Shown piece by piece: positions 3,401 through 45,404 of a stretch of DNA of 45,404 nt. This stretch comes from Clostridia bacterium (GTDB lineage Bacteria > Bacillota > Clostridia > Oscillospirales > CAG-272), in NCBI GenBank assembly GCA_017508465.1, contig JAFVYW010000110.1:1-45404 (forward strand), read 5' to 3'. The notes under the pieces are model-generated. The model was not told the DNA's origin, did no database searches, and worked only from the letters and a program-made list of their open reading frames with translations. The stretch's first letter is position 1; each line of letters begins with the position of its first letter. The translations under genes were made by a program, and so were the position numbers.

Positions 3401-6400
3401 ATCACCAAGGGCGTTTGCCAAAAGGAGAACTCTCGAGAGCGCCGTGATGAGATCTGCACGCGCGTTGAGCTCGCGGGCGAGAGGCGCATTCAGAGGTTGC
3501 TTCTGCTTCTTTGCCTGACGATAGGAGAGGGAGGCGGATTGTACCTCGCGACGAAGGGATGTGCTCTCTTTTTCGAGCAAGGAAATCTGCGCGGTAGCGC
3601 TCTTGCGATCGGCGCGGGCGCTTCTGTCTGCCTCGCGGGCAAATTGTGCCTCGCTATGCGCGGTATATGCTTCATAGGCGCGATCATCCGCCAATACGCG
3701 ACGAGGTACCTTCGGCGCTTCCTCTTCGGCGCTCTTGCCCTTTGCCTTTTCAGGCTGCTGTGCGGGGGCACTTGCAACAGGAGCGACAACTCGCGCAGGA
3801 GCGGCGCCAGACAGAAGAATTTCGCTACCCATAACCGTAGCGCCCGTAGCAGCAAGTGCCAGAGCGAGGGCATCGGGACCTTCTTCATAGGTAATCATCT
3901 CAATCGGCTTCTCGCCTTCATCCACACGGAAGGTGGGAAGAGTGGGCAGGGTGCCGGTATTGACAACCGTCGATGCAAGATCACGGGAAATTTCAGGGAT
4001 AGCCGACCTCTTTGCCTTCGGCAACAGACGAAGCGTTGTGTTATATGCACGAGCTTGCTTCGTGATTTCATCCATCGCAGATTTCTGTGTTTTCGTCTGC
4101 GCGAGAACACCAGCGAGAATGGCAATTTTGGAAAGCTCGGTAATCCACGCCGAGCGCGCGTTAAGCTCGAGCGCGCAAGCTTCTTCCATCGCGCCCTTGC
4201 TCTTCTTCGCCTTCTGGGTTTCAGAAGAGGTTGCGAGGACAAGCTGGCGTTTCTTATCGCTTTCCTTCTTTAACTGTGCGAGGGTAGCCAGAGCGCTCTT
4301 GCGATTGGATTTCGCGAGGCGATCGGCTTTTTTACGGTATTGGAGTTCGTTGTAGGCATCGAAGGATGAAAGTGCAATTTCATCACGGGATCTTGGTGCT
4401 TCTTCGGGATTTTCTTCGACACGGGGTGCCTCTTGTACCGTTTCAGAAGCAGGAATGGGCGCAGGCGCAACAGGCGCGCGGCCCTGGAGAACGATTTCAC
4501 TTTGCGCGAGTGCGCCTGCACCGGCAAGAGCGACAGCTGCGGCAATACCGTTGTCCTCTCTCTCGGGCGCGGTGGGAATCATCACAAATTCTTCCTCTGT
4601 GACAGGTTCCGCTACTCTGACACGCGCAATTGCGGGAATGGTGCTGGTATTGCGTGTCTCGTCAACAAGGGAGGGAGAAAGCTCACCGACGGTGCGTCTC
4701 TCTTCTTTGGAGAGAGCGCGCGTTGCTTTGTTATATGCCTTGATTTCGACATGCATTTCCTTCTCGGCGGTCCGTTCGGTCTGGGAAAGACCAAGCGCAC
4801 GGGAGAGAAGCATAACGGTAGCAAGCTGTTCGATCAGGGAAGCGCGTTCAGAAAGCTCCTTCGCCACAGCGGGTGATACAGGCTCCTTCTTCTTTTTCGC
4901 ACCGGCAACCTCTGCGCTTGCCTGTGCCACTGCACGGCGCTGTGCTTTGGTTTGCCTCAGGAGATCATCCAGCGTCTTTTTCGCGCTCTTTCTTTCTGCC
5001 TTATCCGCCTTGGCAAGAGAACGGACAAGACGGCGGTCATTGTGCGCATCGTACTGTGTCCAGGCGATCTCGTCGCGGGAAGGCTTGGGTTCTTCCGCCG
5101 TTGGCTCTGCCCCCTCTGCCTTCGGCTCTTCCGCAGGCGCGCTTTCTGCAGGCGCGGCGGTCTGTGCCATAGGTCTTACAGAGGTAATCACGCGCTCTTC
5201 GGCAGGGGCAGCCTGTGCCGCAGAAGCGGCGGCAACGGCTACGGCACTGACAGGAAGCACGGTCGCGGCAGGAAGCATCTCGAAGGGTTCTTCCTCGACT
5301 TCCTCATAGCGGACACGGTTGATGCTGACAGGTGTACCGGTGGTAAGGGTGGTGTTTGCCAGTTGTTCATCCAGACGAGAAACATCCGCGCGGACCTTCT
5401 CGGGCAGGTAAACAATGGCGGTATTGTAGGCGCGGACCTCGCCGTTCATCTCGGTGAGAGCGCTCTTTTCGACCTTTCCGTCGCCAAGGGCGTGGGAGAG
5501 GACGAGAATTCTCGACAGGGTTTCTACGAGAGCGGCGCGCGCATTCAATTCCTCGATGACGGGAGAGGTCATTTCGGACTTCTTCTTTCTTGCGCGCTTC
5601 GTATTCTCTTTGGCTTTGGCAAGCGCGATGCGCTCTGCCTCCGCTTGCTTCTGCAGGACAATCAGCTGCTTCGACGCGCTCTTGCGGTCGATTTTTTCAG
5701 CCTTTCCTGCCGCGCGAGCAACCACTGCCTCGTTATATGCATCGAACTGACAGAGTGCAAGCTCATCACGGGTAGGCGCGGGAGATACCGCCTCCTCCGC
5801 GGTGCCTTCGGGCGCGGTCTGCTCTTCGCTCGCCGCTTGTGCCGGACGCACGGTGGTGACTACGGTCTCATGAGGCGTGCGTTCTTCACTTGCGCGGGAG
5901 AGCGCCTCGGATACCGTAGGTTGTGCCTCCTTGGGTTGCTCCTGCGCTTCCTCGGGCTGTGCTTCTTCCTGCGCCTGTACAGCCTGTGCGGGTGCTGCCG
6001 CAACAGGTGTTTCAGTAGCCTGTTCTTCAACAGTTTCTTGCGTTGTTGTTCTTTCAGAGGATGCTGCGTCAAGGGCTTCCTCAAGGGTAGTCATCTCATC
6101 AGCAAAGCTCTGCTGTTCGGGGGTTAATCCATTGTCGCGGGTGGTAGGGAGGGCGACGGGTACGATGCGGACGCCCTCGGCATTTTCAGCCGCCCCGTCC
6201 GTATCATTGCGAAAATTTACGCTGTCCCCCTCGGTAGGCGCATCTCCGCCCCCATCGGGTGGCGTGGGAAGTTTTGAAAGAATTTTCGCTTTTTTGTCCT
6301 GAAATGCGCCGAGCTTCTTATCTCTCTGCTTTTCAAGGCGCGTTTTCTTTGCGAGAGCGGTCTCGCCTGCAATCGCCTCTTCATAAAGCGAGGTAAGATC

Positions 6401-32355: not shown

Positions 32356-35300
32356 ATGAAAAAAAGAATTTCCCTTTTGATCTTGTGCGCGTGTTTGCTT
32401 TTGGCACTGGTCGGTGTGAGCGCTTTCGCCGCCGACGAAACCGAAACCTCCGCCACAATTTCAACAGCAGAAGATCTCGCTGCCGCACTCGATGCAGATG
32501 GCGAATACATCCTTGCTGCTGACCTCTCCCTGGATGCCAGCACCGACCTGACCGTCGGGGCAACGAATTTTGTCCTCGATCTTGATGGTCACACAATCAC
32601 CTTCCAAGGTCAGAACACCTTCGTAGTAAACGCAGGCTCGAGCGTCACCTTCAGAAATGGTGATGTCCTCGTTGCGCATTCCTACAAAACAGAAGGCCTT
32701 GAAAAAACATTTGATAATTACTTGCCTGTCATACAAAACACAGATGGTTCTTATGCCATTGGCACAGCAGTCGCCATCGACAAGTCCGTCTTTGCAGAAC
32801 AGGATCGCCTGCAAACGCTCGCAGCACCCGCATTCCTTGCAAACGGTGGTTCTGTAACGCTGGACGGCATTTATCTGGAACGAAATGTCTCGGTATCCAA
32901 CGGTGGTCAACTTCTTGAAGCGCTTGATGGCGGTTCCCTTTCGCTTCTCAACTCTGAACTTTATGTCAGTGCCCCCAGCGAAGCGTGGGCGACCATCGAC
33001 ACCTCCGTTATCAAACTCACCCGTGCCGAGAGCGTAACAAAGCTTGTCATCGAAAACTCCTTCGTGCATGAAGTAATGCAAAACTGTGTCTACAATGGTA
33101 CTTATTATTCCAAAGAAGCACCAACGGGAATCAATTCTTCCACCGGCGCTGTCACTAAAGTAGGATACCACCTCGACATAGACGATTCAGCAAACCTTTG
33201 CACGATAGCAGGTACGACGGAAAACACCGGCGTGAAAATCGATATCAATCAAAGCGATTTTATCTGGACACATCACGGTTTTTATGATCCTATTGCAGCC
33301 AACAACACGGTTTCTTTCAACGACACCCTGACAATGAAGAACTCCCGTGTAAAAGTGAACCAGGCTTCCAACTATCAGTCCGTAGGTTTCCAATTTTTCA
33401 GTGCCGACCTCGTATTTGAAAACTGCTATATGGATATGTCAGACGATATTTTTTATATCGGACGCAGCGGCAGTCGTAAAACAACTACATCTCTCACCTT
33501 GCGCGGATGCTATGTAAAGGGTAGCCATTGTATCCGATACGCAACGGACAAAAATGCAATTTATATTGAAAACTCATATGTACAAGGCGCACTCCAACGC
33601 TGGTACAATTACACTTCCACAACCGAAACCGGCTCTCCGAGTGTAACCATCTCCGGAAAACTTTACACGGCGGCGAAAGTGAACGAGGATGCAGACACAA
33701 CCTCGTATTCAGGCTCCAAAAACTCAACTTTTTGGTTCAATGTCAATAAAACCAACGATACCGACGCAATTGTAACGGTAACAACAACAGACGCTATCCC
33801 CGCCTGGACGCACACCATCGCACATCAGGATGGCTCTTACAGCAACTCGATAAACACCAACACCATCGTTGCCAGCGAAGGCGACACTGTAATTCTCTGG
33901 GCAAACACCAAACTCACGGCAAATGGCAATATCAATCTCGTAACATTCGGAGACGCAATTCAGCTGAATATCACTGGCAACGCGAACCCCACTGTTGTCG
34001 ACGGTACACCTGGCAAGGTTTCCTTCATCATGGCCAACGGCGTAAAGCTCTATTATCTCAACAATACCTCTAACACCGTAGCGACCGTCACCAGCATGTC
34101 GGCAGGCTGGACTCTCGTTCTGCAGGAGGATCAGCATGTTCCTACGGCTTATATCAACACCCCCGACTTCTCTTTTGCCATTGACCTCAATGGATACACG
34201 ATCTATGTCTCCTCTGACACAGAAGATGGCACGAAAAATGCCAACGGTTTGTTTCAAATAAACAATGAAAACCAGCACATGCACCTGTACTCCTCCCGTC
34301 CTGGTGCGCGCATTCTTGGTGGACACACCCACGAGGTGAACAAGGAGGGTGCAACAGTTGAAGCTACCCCAAACTATGCTACCAGGTTATTCAACCAAAG
34401 CGCAGGCAACCTGTCTATTGGCTATGACATCAACGGAAATGTCGCTGGTGAGCGCATTGATCTGGTCGCAGGTCAGATGATGCTTCTTAGCGGAGGCAAC
34501 TTCAAAGCAAACAATGTCGCGTGGTATATTGTTTCTGAAGATAACAACTGCGGATTTATGCTTCGATATAGCGCTAATGACAAATCCTTCCATGTTTCAA
34601 ATTCCGATTTCTACATCAAAAAATATGATGTGGTATTTTTCTACAGAGATTATACGGCAGAAAAATCGGATATCGTCCTGGAAAACTGTAATCTGTATTC
34701 CACAACGACAAGCAAATATCTTTTTGCTCCATACCAGGGCAAAACCATCCCAAAGCAAACCGTGCATCTTATCAATACCAATGTATACAATATGAAGGTG
34801 CATTACAATACAAGCACACATGTTTATGTCGAGGGCGAATGTCACCTTCCCTCTATGGTAAATGACCAGATTGAGCTCGCGCCCGGCTATGGCGCTGTTT
34901 ATCAGGGAAATCAGTCGGTAACTCTCTCTGGCACCTCTTATCCGTCCAATTCCCGTCTGAATATGCCCGAGACGACCGATCTCAACAAGTCCTATTCCTA
35001 CAATACCGTGGTCTCCAGATACAGCGATTATAAAGCGAGCATCTACACCAATGTCACACTCGATACCGCGCTCGACCTTCACCTCTATATTCCGAAGGCG
35101 GACGGCATCGCAAGCGTGCTTGTGGATGGCGCAGACTGCTTCGATGCGGACGCTATCGATACACTGAATGGCAAGGATTACTATGTCGTCACCATCGCCA
35201 GAGCGCCGAAGGAGATGTATGAGACCGCGCTTGTAGAAATTATCTTCAAAGACGGCGAGACTTTAACAAAGTACTACACCCTGGAACACTCCCTTCTCAA

Positions 35301-35937
35301 CTACGCAAGCAATCTTCTCGGCATTGACGAGGAGAAGTATAGCGACACAGCGAAGAATTACATCGTCGACTCGAAGAATGTAATGCGCTATGTACTGAAC
35401 TATGCAAAGGAAACCATCGAACGCTATGGCGAGCTCGATGCAGAAACGCTCCTGGCGGTTCAGGGTAAAATCCAAACCCTCCTTGGCGATTTCGCGCTTA
35501 CCGAAAATGACCTCGTCCTGGAAAATGTCAAGACCGACATCCCGACAGGCACCGGTACGGCGGCAGCATTCGACCTTGACTCGAAGGTTGGCTTCGTCCT
35601 CGGCGTTGCCGATACCTTTACAGGTCATGTCAGCGTCACGATGGGCGATCGTGTTGTAACTGGCGATTTCGTTGCTACCAACACCGACACATCAGCTCCC
35701 GTTATGGCAGGATATGTCATTCTCTACGGCATTTTCGCATACGAGCTCTACACGGAAGAAATCACCATTACCATTACAGGTACCAATGGCGATACCGAAG
35801 TCGAAACCACCTTCACTTACAACCTCGCTACCTATGCAAACAGCGGTGTAAGCGAGGATTTAGGAACTGCGCTTTATGCCTATGCAAAGGTCGCAGACAC
35901 CTATGGTCGCACCTACAAGACCTCTACGATTGACTAA
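32356..35937 (+). CDS. Large secreted protein (1193 aa), beta-helix-like; paralog of 11623..15015
   Basis: Signal peptide MKKRISLLILCACLLLALVGVSAFA with AAGGAG SD. Shared blocks are LDLDGHT/IDLNGYT, YSSRPGARILGG and C-terminal FTYNLATYANSG...ALYAYAKVA. Confidence 0.8.
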   Translation: MKKRISLLILCACLLLALVGVSAFAADETETSATISTAEDLAAALDADGEYILAADLSLDASTDLTVGATNFVLDLDGHTITFQGQNTFVVNAGSSVTFRNGDVLVAHSYKTEGLEKTFDNYLPVIQNTDGSYAIGTAVAIDKSVFAEQDRLQTLAAPAFLANGGSVTLDGIYLERNVSVSNGGQLLEALDGGSLSLLNSELYVSAPSEAWATIDTSVIKLTRAESVTKLVIENSFVHEVMQNCVYNGTYYSKEAPTGINSSTGAVTKVGYHLDIDDSANLCTIAGTTENTGVKIDINQSDFIWTHHGFYDPIAANNTVSFNDTLTMKNSRVKVNQASNYQSVGFQFFSADLVFENCYMDMSDDIFYIGRSGSRKTTTSLTLRGCYVKGSHCIRYATDKNAIYIENSYVQGALQRWYNYTSTTETGSPSVTISGKLYTAAKVNEDADTTSYSGSKNSTFWFNVNKTNDTDAIVTVTTTDAIPAWTHTIAHQDGSYSNSINTNTIVASEGDTVILWANTKLTANGNINLVTFGDAIQLNITGNANPTVVDGTPGKVSFIMANGVKLYYLNNTSNTVATVTSMSAGWTLVLQEDQHVPTAYINTPDFSFAIDLNGYTIYVSSDTEDGTKNANGLFQINNENQHMHLYSSRPGARILGGHTHEVNKEGATVEATPNYATRLFNQSAGNLSIGYDINGNVAGERIDLVAGQMMLLSGGNFKANNVAWYIVSEDNNCGFMLRYSANDKSFHVSNSDFYIKKYDVVFFYRDYTAEKSDIVLENCNLYSTTTSKYLFAPYQGKTIPKQTVHLINTNVYNMKVHYNTSTHVYVEGECHLPSMVNDQIELAPGYGAVYQGNQSVTLSGTSYPSNSRLNMPETTDLNKSYSYNTVVSRYSDYKASIYTNVTLDTALDLHLYIPKADGIASVLVDGADCFDADAIDTLNGKDYYVVTIARAPKEMYETALVEIIFKDGETLTKYYTLEHSLLNYASNLLGIDEEKYSDTAKNYIVDSKNVMRYVLNYAKETIERYGELDAETLLAVQGKIQTLLGDFALTENDLVLENVKTDIPTGTGTAAAFDLDSKVGFVLGVADTFTGHVSVTMGDRVVTGDFVATNTDTSAPVMAGYVILYGIFAYELYTEEITITITGTNGDTEVETTFTYNLATYANSGVSEDLGTALYAYAKVADTYGRTYKTSTID

Positions 35938-35949
35938 TCTGCTAAAGTG

Positions 35950-35978
35950 CAACACTTTTAAGAAGAATAGTATATAAT
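35950..35978 (+). promoter_or_regulatory. Promoter P0 of the small-RNA array (degenerate -35)
   Basis: CAACAC, a 17-nt spacer, then TATAAT (35973-78). The spacer TTTTAAGAAGAATAGTA is homologous to the spacers of the other array promoters. Confidence 0.4.
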
Positions 35979-35984
35979 ACAATG

Positions 35985-36064
35985 GAGTCGACGGAGAAAT
36001 CCGTATAGCGTCGGTGAAATAAACGGCGGAAGAAAATGCCCACCAATTTTGGTGGGCATTTTTG
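35985..36064 (+). ncRNA. Candidate small RNA A1 (type A), ~80 nt
   Basis: Starts ~7 nt after the P0 -10. Hairpin ACGGA-GAAA-UCCGU, then a 31-nt conserved core AUAGCGUCGGUGAAAUAAACGGCGGAAGAAA, then terminator AUGCCCACC-AAUUUU-GGUGGGCAU-UUUU. No credible ORF. Confidence 0.55.
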
Positions 36065-36070
36065 ATTTAT

Positions 36071-36136
36071 AAACCATACATTTTCTCTGCGAGTTTGATA
36101 AAAACTATTGACTTTTCAAGAAAAATAACATACAAT
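36071..36136 (+). promoter_or_regulatory. Array promoter P1 with conserved upstream block
   Basis: AAACCATACATTTTCTCTGCGAGTTTGATAAAAACTA + TTGACT (36108-13), a 17-nt spacer, then TACAAT (36131-36). Confidence 0.6.
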
Positions 36137-36142
36137 ATTATC

Positions 36143-36230
36143 GATCCACGAAGAATATTCGTGTAGCCTTATAGCGTCGGTGAAATAAACGGCGGAAGAA
36201 AATGCCCACCAATTTTGGTGGGCATTTTTG
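36143..36230 (+). ncRNA. Candidate small RNA A2 (type A variant), ~88 nt
   Basis: A different 5' hairpin (CACGAA-GAAUA-UUCGUG, 36147-63) is followed by a 60-nt 3' part (core + terminator) identical to A1. Confidence 0.55.
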
Positions 36231-36237
36231 ATTTATT

Positions 36238-36302
36238 AAACCATACATTTCTCTACAAGTTTAATAAAAGCTATTGACTTTTTTAGAAAAAGAGCATATA
36301 AT
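36238..36302 (+). promoter_or_regulatory. Array promoter P2 with conserved upstream block
   Basis: AAACCATACATTTCTCTACAAGTTTAATAAAAGCTA + TTGACT (36274-79), a 17-nt spacer, then TATAAT (36297-302). Confidence 0.6.
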
Positions 36303-36308
36303 AATGTT

Positions 36309-36432
36309 GATAGTTAGGTGTTACTATACGTTGGAAGTAATCAATGTGTAGACGCACGTATTAAAATGTCGCAGATTAAAGGTATAGGCTACCTAACATA
36401 GAGGGACCGTCGCTCACGGCCCCTCGTTTTTT
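36309..36432 (+). ncRNA. Candidate small RNA C, ~124 nt, unique sequence
   Basis: Long-range helix GUUAGGU (36313-19) / ACCUAAC (36391-97). Terminator GAGGGACCG-UCGCUCA-CGGCCCCUC + GUUUUUU (36401-32). Confidence 0.45.
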
Positions 36433-36493
36433 ATTTTGCATATTATCCGATGTAAAAATGTTGACGTCTTTTTATACTCTTTTTTCCTATTTG

Positions 36494-36558
36494 TTTCTAT
36501 AGATTTCTCTGCAAGTTTGATAAAAGCTATTGACTTTTCAAGAAAAATAACATATAAT
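36494..36558 (+). promoter_or_regulatory. Array promoter P3 with conserved upstream block
   Basis: ...ATAGATTTCTCTGCAAGTTTGATAAAAGCTA + TTGACT (36530-35), a 17-nt spacer, then TATAAT (36553-58). Confidence 0.6.
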
Positions 36559-36564
36559 ACTATC

Positions 36565-36646
36565 GAGTTGACGGAGAAATCCGTATAGCGTCGGTGAAAG
36601 AAACGGCGGAAAAACCACCATATCAATTTGATATGGTGGTTTTTTG
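36565..36646 (+). ncRNA. Candidate small RNA A3 (type A), ~82 nt
   Basis: Same ACGGA-GAAA-UCCGU hairpin and core (2 substitutions) as A1, but an unrelated terminator ACCACCAUAUCA-AUU-UGAUAUGGUGGU-UUUUU. Confidence 0.55.
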
Positions 36647-36725
36647 TTATTTGTTTTTCCCGATTATAAAATGATGTCTCTTTTTGATTGATTTGCTTCC
36701 TATGTTCTCTATATAAATTTAATTA

Positions 36726-36791
36726 TAAACTATACATTTCTCTGCGAATTTGATGAAAGCTATTGACTTTTAAAGAAAAATAGCATATAAT
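36726..36791 (+). promoter_or_regulatory. Array promoter P4 with conserved upstream block
   Basis: TAAACTATACATTTCTCTGCGAATTTGATGAAAGCTA + TTGACT (36763-68), a 17-nt spacer, then TATAAT (36786-91). Confidence 0.6.
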
Positions 36792-36797
36792 ATTGAG

Positions 36798-36884
36798 TGA
36801 GCAGAAGTTTGAACCCTTGTGAGGGGAATGTAACACCTGCGCCCACCAAGGTAACGTTTTTACGTGGACCTTGGTATTTTTTTA
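36798..36884 (+). ncRNA. Candidate structured RNA B1 (type B), ~87 nt
   Basis: Outer helix GCAG (36801-04) / CUGC (36837-40). Inner hairpin CCCU-UGUG-AGGG (36814-25). Terminator ACCAAGGU...ACCUUGGU + U7. Confidence 0.55.
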
Positions 36885-37140
36885 TCTATCATATTGTTTT
36901 TTCAAAATCAAAGACGGAGTTTCCATTCCCGGCAAAGACATTTTTATACCGCGCCCTTCTCTTAATTGCTTAAATCGTTTTGGGTGTTTTGATAAAGGTG
37001 TGTCGTTTCAACAGCAACATTTTGACCTGTATATTTGCCTGTAAATAAGGCGGAAATCGAAGAGCGATGCTGAATTGCTCTGGCATTTTTACTGAAAAAT
37101 TGAGAAAAAAATGCAAAGTTTCTGTCTTTGCATTTCATTA

Positions 37141-37206
37141 TAAACCATACATTTCTCTGCGAGTTTGATGAAAGCTATTGACTTTTTAAGAAAAATAGCG
37201 TATAAT
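37141..37206 (+). promoter_or_regulatory. Array promoter P5 with conserved upstream block
   Basis: TAAACCATACATTTCTCTGCGAGTTTGATGAAAGCTA + TTGACT (37178-83), a 17-nt spacer, then TATAAT (37201-06). Confidence 0.6.
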
Positions 37207-37212
37207 ATTGAA

Positions 37213-37300
37213 CGAGCAGAAGTTTGAACCGTTGTAACGGGAATGTAACACCTGCACCGTCAAGGGGATGCGTTTATCGCGTTACCCTTGACTTTTTTTA
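37213..37300 (+). ncRNA. Candidate structured RNA B2 (type B), ~88 nt
   Basis: Same architecture as B1: GCAG (37216-19) / CUGC (37252-55), inner hairpin CCGU-UGUA-ACGG (37229-40), terminator GUCAAGGG...CCCUUGAC + U7. Confidence 0.55.
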
Positions 37301-37326
37301 CTCTTGATGTTTTTTTCTTAAAATAC

Positions 37327-37355
37327 TTGTAAAAATCTCTCATCTATGCTATAAT
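37327..37355 (+). promoter_or_regulatory. SigA-type promoter of prfC
   Basis: TTGTAA (37327-32), a 17-nt spacer, then TATAAT (37350-55). It lies downstream of the B2 terminator. Confidence 0.5.
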
Positions 37356-37422
37356 AATTCAGTTAGACTTCTCCTCTCGCGCGAAGATAAGAGAGGAATA
37401 CCAAATAAAAAAGGATAGTTTT

Positions 37423-39027
37423 ATGTCACAGCTGAAAAAAGAAATTGAAAGACGGCGCACATTCGCCATCATTTCCCACCCCGACGCAGGTAAAACCACT
37501 CTTACCGAGAAATTTCTTCTCTATGGTGGCGCCATCCAATCTGCTGGCTCGGTCAAGGGAAAGCAATCGGACAAGCACGCCGTATCCGACTGGATGGACC
37601 TCGAAAAGCAAAGAGGTATCTCCATCACCTCGTCCGTTCTTCAGTTTGAATACGATGGATATTGTATCAACATTCTTGACACCCCGGGACACCAGGACTT
37701 CTCCGAGGACACCTATCGTACCCTGATGGCGGCCGACAGCGCCGTGATGGTCATCGACGCGGCGAAGGGCATTGAGCCACAGACGAGAAAGCTCTTCAAG
37801 GTCTGCGCGATGCGCGATATCCCGATTTTTACCTTTATCAATAAAATGGACCGCGAAGCGCGTGATCCCTTTGACCTTCTCGATGAACTCGAAAAAGAGT
37901 TCGGCATCGGCACCTATCCGATGAACTGGCCGATCGGATGCGGTCAAAACTTCAAGGGCGTGTACGACCGCGATAAAAAGAGCATTCTCTCCTTTGGAGA
38001 CTCTCACCGCGGACGCGAGAGAATTCACGGTATCGATTGTGATATCGCCGATACGGAAAAGCTGGGTGAGCTCATCGGCGAGAGACTCCGTACCGAGCTT
38101 GTCGAGCAGGTAGAGCTTCTCGACGGCGCGTGCTTTGATTTTGACCTCGACGCCGTCCGCCATGGCAAGCTCTCGCCCGTATTCTTCGGCTCCGCCCTCA
38201 ACAACTTCGGTGTTGAGCCTTTCCTTGAACATTTCCTTAAAATGACAACCTCTCCCCTTCCCCGTGTGGCAGGTGGCGTGACGATTGATCCCTTTGACGA
38301 GGGCTTCTCCGCCTTTGTATTCAAGATTCAGGCGAATATGAACAAGGCGCACCGCGACCGTATCGCCTTTATGCGTATCTGCTCGGGCATGTTTGACCGT
38401 AGCCGTGACTATTACCATGTGCAGGGTAACAAGTCCTTCCGCCTCTCCCAGCCACAGCAGATGATGGCTTCTGAACGCGAGGTTATCGACACCGCTTATG
38501 CCGGTGATATCATCGGTGTATTCGATCCTGGTATTTTCTCGATTGGTGATACCATCTGCGAGAAGGGACAGAAAATTCGCTTCGAGGGTATTCCCGTGTT
38601 TGCCCCCGAGCATTTCGCGATGGTCGAGCAGGTCGATTCCATGAAGCGTAAGCAGTTCGCCAAGGGTATGAACCAGATTGCCCAGGAGGGTGCTATTCAG
38701 ATTTTCTTTGAACCAAACTCTGGTCTTGAGCGTGTCATCGTCGGCGTTGTCGGCGTGCTTCAATTTGAGGTTCTCGAATACCGTATCAGAAACGAATACG
38801 GCTGCGACCTGCGCCGTTCTCCCCTTCCCTATCAGCAAATCCGCTGGATTGCCAACGAGGGACTGGATCCCAAGACATTGAAACTCTCGCATGACACCAA
38901 ATGGGTGCAGGACTTCCGCGGAAAGAACCTTCTGATTTTCACAAGCGAGTGGGCTATCCGCTGGGTACTGGAGGATAACCCTGGTCTGGAGCTCGCCGAA
39001 TTCTCCCGCGAGGAGGACAACCAATGA
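37423..39027 (+). CDS. prfC: Peptide chain release factor 3 (translational GTPase)
   Basis: RRTFAIISHPDAGKTTLTEK, DTPGHQDF and NKMDR motifs; length 534 aa; overall RF3 layout. Confidence 0.95.
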   Translation: MSQLKKEIERRRTFAIISHPDAGKTTLTEKFLLYGGAIQSAGSVKGKQSDKHAVSDWMDLEKQRGISITSSVLQFEYDGYCINILDTPGHQDFSEDTYRTLMAADSAVMVIDAAKGIEPQTRKLFKVCAMRDIPIFTFINKMDREARDPFDLLDELEKEFGIGTYPMNWPIGCGQNFKGVYDRDKKSILSFGDSHRGRERIHGIDCDIADTEKLGELIGERLRTELVEQVELLDGACFDFDLDAVRHGKLSPVFFGSALNNFGVEPFLEHFLKMTTSPLPRVAGGVTIDPFDEGFSAFVFKIQANMNKAHRDRIAFMRICSGMFDRSRDYYHVQGNKSFRLSQPQQMMASEREVIDTAYAGDIIGVFDPGIFSIGDTICEKGQKIRFEGIPVFAPEHFAMVEQVDSMKRKQFAKGMNQIAQEGAIQIFFEPNSGLERVIVGVVGVLQFEVLEYRIRNEYGCDLRRSPLPYQQIRWIANEGLDPKTLKLSHDTKWVQDFRGKNLLIFTSEWAIRWVLEDNPGLELAEFSREEDNQ

Positions 39028-40512: not shown

Positions 40513-40621
40513 CGGAGGATTTCTTTCTTCCTTTTTGCAAAAAGGAAGCGAAAAAATCTCATAGATATGAAAAAGGAATCGACTCAAAACAGCAGATTCC
40601 CACAACACCATTTTTCCATAG

Positions 40622-40712
40622 CAAAGGGGCTGAGTCATTAAGAATTCAGCATACTTTGACATTGAATAAGAATTTTCACTAAAATGCTGAATTCTTAGTG
40701 CGAAGCGCCTTT
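40622..40712. repeat. Small palindromic element next to the MITE-like repeat
   Basis: 14-bp inverted repeat TAAGAATTCAGCAT (40639-52) / ATGCTGAATTCTTA (40684-97). The outer ends CAAAGGGGCTGAGTC... resemble the terminus of the neighbouring element. Confidence 0.35.
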
Positions 40713-40873
40713 GGGGCTCGCTTCATTTAGGCATAACCGAACGAAAAACCTAAATAAAAAAAGAGAAAACCGTAGGTTTTGACCTTAGTTTCCTCTTAAT
40801 CAGTAAACGACAGAGGCAATTTGATTGTACCTCTGTCGTTTTTCGTTCGGTTATGCCTAAATGAAGCAGCCCC
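40713..40873. repeat. MITE-like palindromic element, copy 1 (~160 bp, ~36-bp terminal inverted repeats)
   Basis: GGGGCTCGCTTCATTTAGGCATAACCGAACGAAAAAC (40713-49) against its complement at 40838-73. Internal hairpins AAAACC-GTA-GGTTTT and AAACGACAGAGG...CCTCTGTCGTTT. A second copy lies at 45270. Confidence 0.7.
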
Positions 40874-40886
40874 TTTGTTGTTTGTT

Positions 40887-45262: not shown

Positions 45263-45269
45263 GTATAAA

Positions 45270-45404
45270 AGGGGCTGCTTCATTTAGGCATAACCGAACG
45301 AAAAACGACAGAGGTACAATCAAATTGCCTCTGTCGTTTACAGATTAAGAGGAAACTAAGGTCAAAACCTACGGTTTTCTCTTTTTTTATTTAGGTTTTT
45401 CGTT
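45270..45404. repeat. MITE-like palindromic element, copy 2 (inverted relative to copy 1, truncated by the window end)
   Basis: 135 nt equal the reverse complement of 40739-40873 with one mismatch (ACAGATT vs ACTGATT). Confidence 0.75.

Follow-up and report, generated by a model that had tools for sequence, protein, structure and literature searches.

Contig JAFVYW010000110.1 (assembly GCA_017508465.1) of a Clostridia bacterium of the order Oscillospirales (CAG-272) was analysed over 45,404 nucleotides (nt), this whole stretch being referred to here as the window. Between the stop codon of a gene for a 1193-amino acid (aa) protein with a signal peptide (32356-35937, forward strand) and the start codon of prfC (37423-39027, forward strand) lies a gene-free interval of 1485 bp (35938-37422). 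It contains an array on the forward strand at 35945-37306 (1362 bp), whose limits are set by homology to a sister species (L094). An original prediction, made from the letters of the sequence, had described six mini transcription units in tandem in this interval and had likened them to known multicopy small RNA (sRNA) loci. Six units in tandem on the same strand were confirmed within 35945-37306, and there is an even chance that they constitute a lineage-specific cluster of six independently transcribed, co-regulated, trans-acting sRNA genes.

A promoter scan located TTGACT-17-TATAAT at 36274, 36530, 36763 and 37178, and TTGACT-17-TACAAT at 36108, in line with the near-consensus promoters of exact 17-nt spacing that had been claimed; the spacer between the two elements is A-rich in units 2-6. 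Across the 45.4-kb window and on both strands 23 sites score at least 10/12, five of these being the array promoters. That five of the best promoters of the window stand here on one strand, with a hairpin and U-tract 79-124 nt on, argues for sRNA genes. The promoters are part of a module of approximately 70 nt common to units 2-6, which is 83-93% identical between units and, when aligned, conserved from approximately -75 to +1. An upstream block common to five promoters had also been reported and was recovered, with the 23-mer TTTGATAAAAGCTATTGACTTTT taken from it occurring five times at ≤1 mismatch compared to 0 expected, and the stretch from -36 to -75 being conserved in five of the six units. 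Unit 1, correctly singled out earlier for its degenerate -35, has only a -10 (TATAAT, 35973-35978) and no upstream block, because the left edge of the array cuts into it.

Unit 1 (35973-36066) encodes the predicted A1 RNA (approximately 35984-36066), with a 5′ GAAA hairpin, a core starting at 36004 and a terminator hairpin at approximately 36033-36062 followed by the U-tract. Unit 2 (36069-36232) has its module at 36069-36136, with the -35 at 36108-36113 and the -10 (TACAAT) at 36131-36136, and is predicted to produce the A2 RNA (approximately 36143-36232). Unit 3 (36235-36432; module 36235-36302, -35 36274-36279, -10 36297-36302) would give the 124-nt C RNA (approximately 36309-36432), the terminator of which lies at approximately 36401-36425 and is followed by six U residues. 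Unit 4 (36495-36650; module 36495-36558, -35 36530-36535, -10 36553-36558) corresponds to the A3 RNA (approximately 36565-36650, terminator 36609-36645). Unit 5 (36724-36884; module 36724-36791, -35 36763-36768, -10 36786-36791) corresponds to the B1 RNA (approximately 36798-36884), which has a 45-nt three-stem body (36798-36842) and then the terminator, and unit 6 (37139-37299; module 37139-37206, -35 37178-37183, -10 37201-37206) to the B2 RNA (approximately 37213-37299), with its body at 37213-37257. All six are on the forward strand. Units 5 and 6 are separated by a 253-bp spacer (36887-37139) with one terminator-like hairpin (37061-37081), in which no open reading frame (ORF) was found and which resembles neither the units nor any of the loci retrieved.

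The payloads had been put at 80-125 nt, each ending in a hairpin with a U-tract. Computed folds agree with this, as the predicted RNAs measure 79-124 nt and every one is closed by a stable hairpin plus U-tract, with minimum free energies for the whole RNAs of -27.5 to -37.5 kcal/mol and z-scores of -2.3 to -6.3. A simple terminator scanner flags two of the six units on account of its no-bulge and tail rules. Three body families can be distinguished, as first proposed, namely A (three copies, cores at 36004, 36170, and 36584), B (two copies, cores at 36799 and 37214) and C (a single copy), and alignments between the families are no better than those of shuffled controls. Purines make up 58-69% of the bodies, which carry one to three GGA motifs each, mostly in stems and not in loops, while neither UCCC nor CCUCC occurs in any of the six RNAs. 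The B body possesses conserved internal loops on either side of a variable hairpin.

Comparison of the copies with each other shows an uneven pattern of conservation. The A1 and A3 bodies are 92% identical and the B1 and B2 bodies 89%, whereas the terminators within these pairs of units are only ~60% identical but retain their folding. A1 and A2 are identical over core plus terminator (65/65), and their 5′ hairpins differ in sequence with a hairpin being formed in both. In B1 and B2, five of 45 columns differ and the sole change at a paired position is a compensatory one, C-G to G-C in stem P2. As read from these alignments, the pattern points to constraint on the sequence of the bodies and on just the shape of the terminators. 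Across two or three paralogues, the uneven identity (promoters and bodies 83-93%, terminators ~60%) together with the compensatory change would point to selection on promoter and body sequences and on the RNAs. It bears directly on a rival explanation, namely that the array arose by a tandem amplification that is either without function or selfish. In this view a strong cassette of promoter and terminator, perhaps an orphaned leader or attenuator whose genes were lost, and maybe transcribed with no regulatory role, underwent duplication and recombination in an intergenic hotspot of variable content. Neutral duplicates would be expected to decay evenly, and the maintenance of five near-consensus promoters and the compensatory change in B also speak against such an origin; the complete identity of A1 and A2 over 65 nt, however, fits a recent duplication or gene conversion. 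Amplification without function is considered rather unlikely overall, and the evidence of distribution that favors it is given below.

The earlier statement that no credible ORF lies between the secreted protein gene and the prfC promoter was upheld. All ORFs in 35938-37422 are ≤70 aa, and no Shine-Dalgarno (SD) sequence was found within 20 nt upstream of any ORF in the region. Thirteen ORFs of 30-70 aa do overlap the region, which is what could be said for a set of small proteins or type I toxin-antitoxin pairs. However, the A core is identical in A1 and A2, yet the minus-strand ORFs that run across it do so in different frames, which, with the lack of an SD, argues that the region is non-coding; there is no hydrophobic toxin-like peptide among its ORFs, and gene callers run on an independent contig of the same species called no gene in the array. 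The small-protein and toxin-antitoxin identity was rejected on the SD and frame evidence and is regarded as extremely improbable.

As to known RNA families, none had been recognised at the outset and a covariance-model scan of the whole window against Rfam 15 gave 0 matches at gathering thresholds. A permissive scan (E up to 10) returned only sub-threshold matches, which align terminator hairpins. No tRNA or tmRNA was found, and the LhrC model (RF00616) was matched neither at its gathering threshold nor with E relaxed to 10. The CiaR box, TTTAAG-N5-TTTAAG, has no match at any array promoter with up to two mismatches. An array of clustered regularly interspaced short palindromic repeats (CRISPR) or of the type III ToxI kind was also considered and rejected, as the repeats are 94-145 nt with spacings of 166-415 nt, and every one comes with a promoter and a terminator of its own; no cas or toxN-like gene neighbors the array. 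Two further ideas concerning B were dropped by eye, these being a start-stop AUGUAA, for which the SD spacing is too short, and an anti-terminator, for which the alternative pairing is only ~5 bp. Likewise, the AGGUGUUAC of C, complementary to B and adjoining a CUAUACG complementary to A, was not significant compared to shuffles (p ≥ 0.06).

The composition of the bodies raises the possibility that the RNAs are sponges or decoys of the CsrB/RsmZ or 6S type, which titrate an RNA-binding protein and do not pair with mRNA. Their purine content, the GGA motif or motifs of each, and the absence of a C-rich seed would be compatible with this, as would the repeated CGG-N-GAAAU-like or GGA-containing motifs (the repeat motif being seen by eye only), the several strong promoters, which would suit the high copy number of a titrator, and the internal loops of B around its variable hairpin. 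However, a sponge of the CsrB/Rsm type has many GGA motifs in loops, and on this count the identity was rejected, the motifs here being too few and mostly in stems. The CsrB, Rsm and 6S models of Rfam gave no match, and no csrA, fliW or other RNA-binding-protein gene adjoins the array. A protein-binding role of this kind is therefore judged unlikely.

The position of the array directly 3′ of one gene and directly 5′ of another suggests a further alternative, in which it acts in cis, either as a stack of terminators insulating prfC from read-through of the surface-protein gene or, in the case of unit 6 (B2), as a riboswitch-like attenuator feeding prfC. No terminator was found between the stop codon of the 1193-aa gene and unit 1, the terminator of which is the first downstream of that gene, and B is a small three-stem domain with a terminator immediately after it. 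Yet prfC has a promoter of its own, TTGTAA-17-TATAAT at 37327-37355 (forward strand) by the promoter scan, and its own leader 5′ of the coding sequence, and since both are kept in L094, which has no array, the array is unlikely to act on prfC in cis. In addition, a single terminator would be enough to insulate, each unit contains a strong promoter, and B1 is followed by the 253-bp spacer and another promoter with no gene. A riboswitch or attenuator was also rejected on the grounds that the next promoter follows every unit, that prfC has its own, and that there is no Rfam riboswitch match. A function in cis is accordingly held to be very improbable.

Some features of the two flanking genes deserve mention in their own right. 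The prfC leader (37356-37422 in the window, 21560-21635 in L094) was seen by eye to form a hairpin in both species with differing stem sequences (UCCUCUC...GAGAGGA in the window, CUUUGUCC...GGGCAAAG in L094), which suggests that a leader element of conserved structure precedes the ribosome-binding site of prfC. The 1193-aa protein (32356-35937) carries the signal peptide MKKRISLLILCACLLLALVGVSAFA and has no Pfam domain. Only three clusters of homologues (73-79% identity) were found for it among 5.8 billion proteins, and four of the five contigs coding for these homologues break off within ~100 nt of the stop codon.

The locus itself is real, as it is present in an independent assembly of the same species. 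This ENA metagenome contig (L001), which encodes an identical PrfC, has the locus base for base with the exception of one missing A unit of 166 bp, leaving five units; the difference could stem from recombination of A1 with A2 at their identical cores or from a collapse during assembly. Exact-protein look-ups returned two contigs for PrfC, seven short contigs for GreA, none of which reaches the array, and none for the 1193-aa protein. When a spurious minus-strand ORF of the array was used as a handle among the 5.8 billion proteins, one further contig of the species was recovered (L106, sample ERZ28654085), which is 552 nt in length. It is identical to window positions 36197-36528, covering the A2 terminator, unit 3 and the upstream block of unit 4, and then, immediately 5′ of the unit-4 -35, passes into the beginning of a minus-strand gene that is unrelated (MAFVGFWMIPLALIFSW...). 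This contig represents either a rearrangement at the strain level, an additional promoter block at another place in the genome, or a chimeric assembly.

Outside the species the array was not encountered. By its PrfC the organism belongs with the uncultured Oscillospirales of gut and rumen, within or close to the Acutalibacteraceae. The best GTDB species representative has a PrfC of 90% identity, and in the relatives L004 and L090 (89-91% PrfC identity) greA lies directly 5′ of prfC. The sister species L094 does have a homologue of the 1193-aa protein and runs collinear with the window, with 84-89% identity at the nucleotide level. Its blastn homology ends at window position 35944, 7 nt past the stop codon, and resumes at 37307 with the prfC promoter, and these breaks mark the array as a lineage-specific replacement with precise boundaries, set in an interval that is variable. 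As far as sequence searches reach, it is an orphan found in one rare uncultured species only.

The interval between greA and prfC is occupied differently again in another species, whose PrfC is 91% identical. In this relative (L090 3897-4195 and L091 1-522) it contains two to three or more tandem repeats of ~150 nt, starting with TCCCGTAATAATGCGCCGAAAA..GCAATATTTTTATATTGC... and having no sequence relation to the array of the window; there is an N-gap inside these repeats. It follows that the greA-prfC interval gathers different repeats in different species. A separate observation in the window and in L094 concerns a palindromic element resembling a miniature inverted-repeat transposable element (MITE), AAAGGGGCTG...CTTCATTTAGGCATAACCGAACGAAAAAC...GTTTTTCGTTCGGTTATGCCTAAATGAAGCAGCCCCTTT, at window positions 40621-40880 and 45267-45404, the second copy being cut by the end of the window. 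L094 has a MITE-like copy at 4623-4942, between the genes for PNP and a helicase, where the window lacks the element. Positions 45267-45404 of the window are 100% identical to L094 while the flanking genes are just 84-89% identical, which suggests that the element has been mobile recently.

A number of results weigh against a functional sRNA cluster. The first is its absence from every relative examined, which weakens the functional part of the original prediction. In L094 the site of the array holds 7.9 kb of other sequence, consisting of a terminator, a gene for a 2161-aa Big_5 (surface) protein and an araC-family gene. All units searched by blastn-short against 80 related prfC loci (1.3 Mb) matched only the same-species contig L001, and covariance models of the B and A cores run against 1.44 Mb matched only the window and L001. 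Patterns of the promoter block and of B gave 0 matches each in JGI metagenomes (the A core was not scanned there), patterns of A and B gave 0 matches in IMG/VR, and blastn against plasmids and phages gave no match. Because no homologue was found in other genomes, covariation is confined to the paralogues, and its support thus comes from two or three copies only. Once the terminators are removed, the bodies have z-scores of -1.1 to -2.8, modestly below shuffles. The -35 to -10 core follows a generic design of strong promoters in Firmicutes or phages, and its -35/spacer pattern has seven viral matches in IMG/VR, which are generic strong promoters, one of them driving a tRNA; only the upstream block is specific to the array. 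Finally, no complementarity between the array RNAs was significant compared to shuffles, and a search for targets among 24 translation-initiation regions of the window gave nothing above the multiple-testing expectation. A 13-nt exact identity, AACGGCGGAAGAA, was observed between the A1/A2 core and the sense strand of a 2633-aa gene (5090-5102, minus strand); being same-sense and not complementary, with E ~0.04, it is probably due to chance.

It is in this distribution that amplification without function has its other support, namely the absence from every relative with 7.9 kb of other genes at the site in L094, the variability of the greA-prfC interval across the genus with an unrelated tandem repeat there in another species, the unit count of six compared to five between two assemblies, and the joining of the unit-4 promoter block to unrelated DNA in L106.

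The anatomy of the units and the unequal conservation of their parts are nevertheless accommodated by the sRNA cluster, which would operate as follows. From the signals described we infer that the units are transcribed and co-regulated and that their products act in trans on targets. Units 2-6 would each be driven by a near-identical promoter module with near-consensus sigma-A -35 and -10 elements, in which the -36 to -75 block would be an UP element or else the site at which a single common regulator binds, and an intrinsic terminator of its own in each unit would result in abundant, co-regulated RNAs of 79-124 nt. In unit 1 the -35 and the upstream block were lost at the left breakpoint. As the terminator of this unit is the first after the 1193-aa gene, A1 may be released as an RNA derived from the 3′ untranslated region; its probable source is the 3′ end of the mRNA of that gene, or else a weak promoter. 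The RNAs are most likely trans riboregulators, the conserved, weakly structured and purine-rich bodies of which would pair with partners or titrate an RNA-binding protein. Given the purine-rich bodies and the lack of C-rich anti-SD seeds, any partners bound by base pairing would be pyrimidine-rich, and blocking of the SD in the manner of the C-rich Firmicute sRNAs appears unlikely.

There is also a slim chance that the locus is a modular RNA cassette array with fast turnover, in which the ~70-nt promoter module has been repeatedly recombined with unrelated bodies and units are gained or lost between strains. The difference of six and five units and the contig in which the promoter block joins foreign DNA before the -35 are hints in this direction. 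In addition, the B body may be a new protein- or ligand-binding RNA fold. If true, such an array would be a previously undescribed route by which gut Clostridia evolve and express new regulatory RNAs.

To our knowledge, the regulatory RNAs of the abundant uncultured Oscillospirales of the gut and rumen are almost unknown. If expressed, the RNAs of this array would constitute three new sRNA families, and would show how sRNA genes originate and multiply, since the intergenic hotspot, which was remodelled recently, has three unrelated bodies placed behind a single promoter module. In Clostridia, the module and the terminators could also be put to use as compact parts for expression. Practical consequences are otherwise limited, given that the array belongs to a single rare species that is uncultured and that neither a target nor a phenotype can yet be proposed.

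With adjacent paralogous short non-coding units, each with a predicted promoter and an intrinsic terminator, the array corresponds to what is generally understood as a cluster of sRNA genes, and on its sequence the interpretation as sibling sRNAs, which had been put forward on the basis of Listeria LhrC1-4 and the streptococcal csRNAs, is plausible. The layout drawn upon for that likeness is apt; the bodies do not bear it out, being without a UCCC or CCUCC seed, a CiaR box or a covariance-model match.

By our comparison, the tandem layout would be especially close to that of LhrC1-4 of Listeria monocytogenes, which together with LhrC5 forms a family. In both, the genes stand head to tail within a single intergenic region, every gene has a promoter and an intrinsic terminator to itself, and the RNAs are of similar size. 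The promoters also share an upstream element in both systems, and in LhrC a conserved element upstream of -53 confers dependence on LisR (PMC4132741). The LhrC target lapB encodes a cell-wall adhesin (PMC4132741), and the array adjoins a gene for a secreted protein. However, all LhrC copies are homologous, whereas the array has three unrelated bodies; LhrC pairs with the SD through three UCCC motifs, whereas the bodies of the array are purine-rich; and LhrC is conserved in Listeria, whereas the array is limited to one species.

The csRNAs comprise two to six siblings per genome, some in tandem, which are under one regulator via a common promoter motif and have their own terminators (PMC4211561). 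The array resembles them in its tandem siblings, common promoter motif and individual terminators, and differs in that the csRNAs have the CiaR box, an anti-SD CCUCC and genus-wide conservation, while the array has none of the three. PrrF1/PrrF2, OmrA/OmrB, and AbcR1/AbcR2 are adjacent paralogues with conserved seeds and divergent remainders, and in proteobacterial tandem siblings both copy number and arrangement differ between species (PMC4211561). These too are neighboring paralogous sRNA genes; they are, however, Hfq-dependent pairs conserved across genera, in contrast to six units in three families with no detectable orthologues. CsrB, RsmY and RsmZ share with the array the small non-coding format, strong promoters and purine-rich, GGA-containing sequence, and differ in the many loop GGAs that they carry. 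What sets the array apart from known clustered sRNA genes is the placing of three unrelated bodies behind one promoter module.

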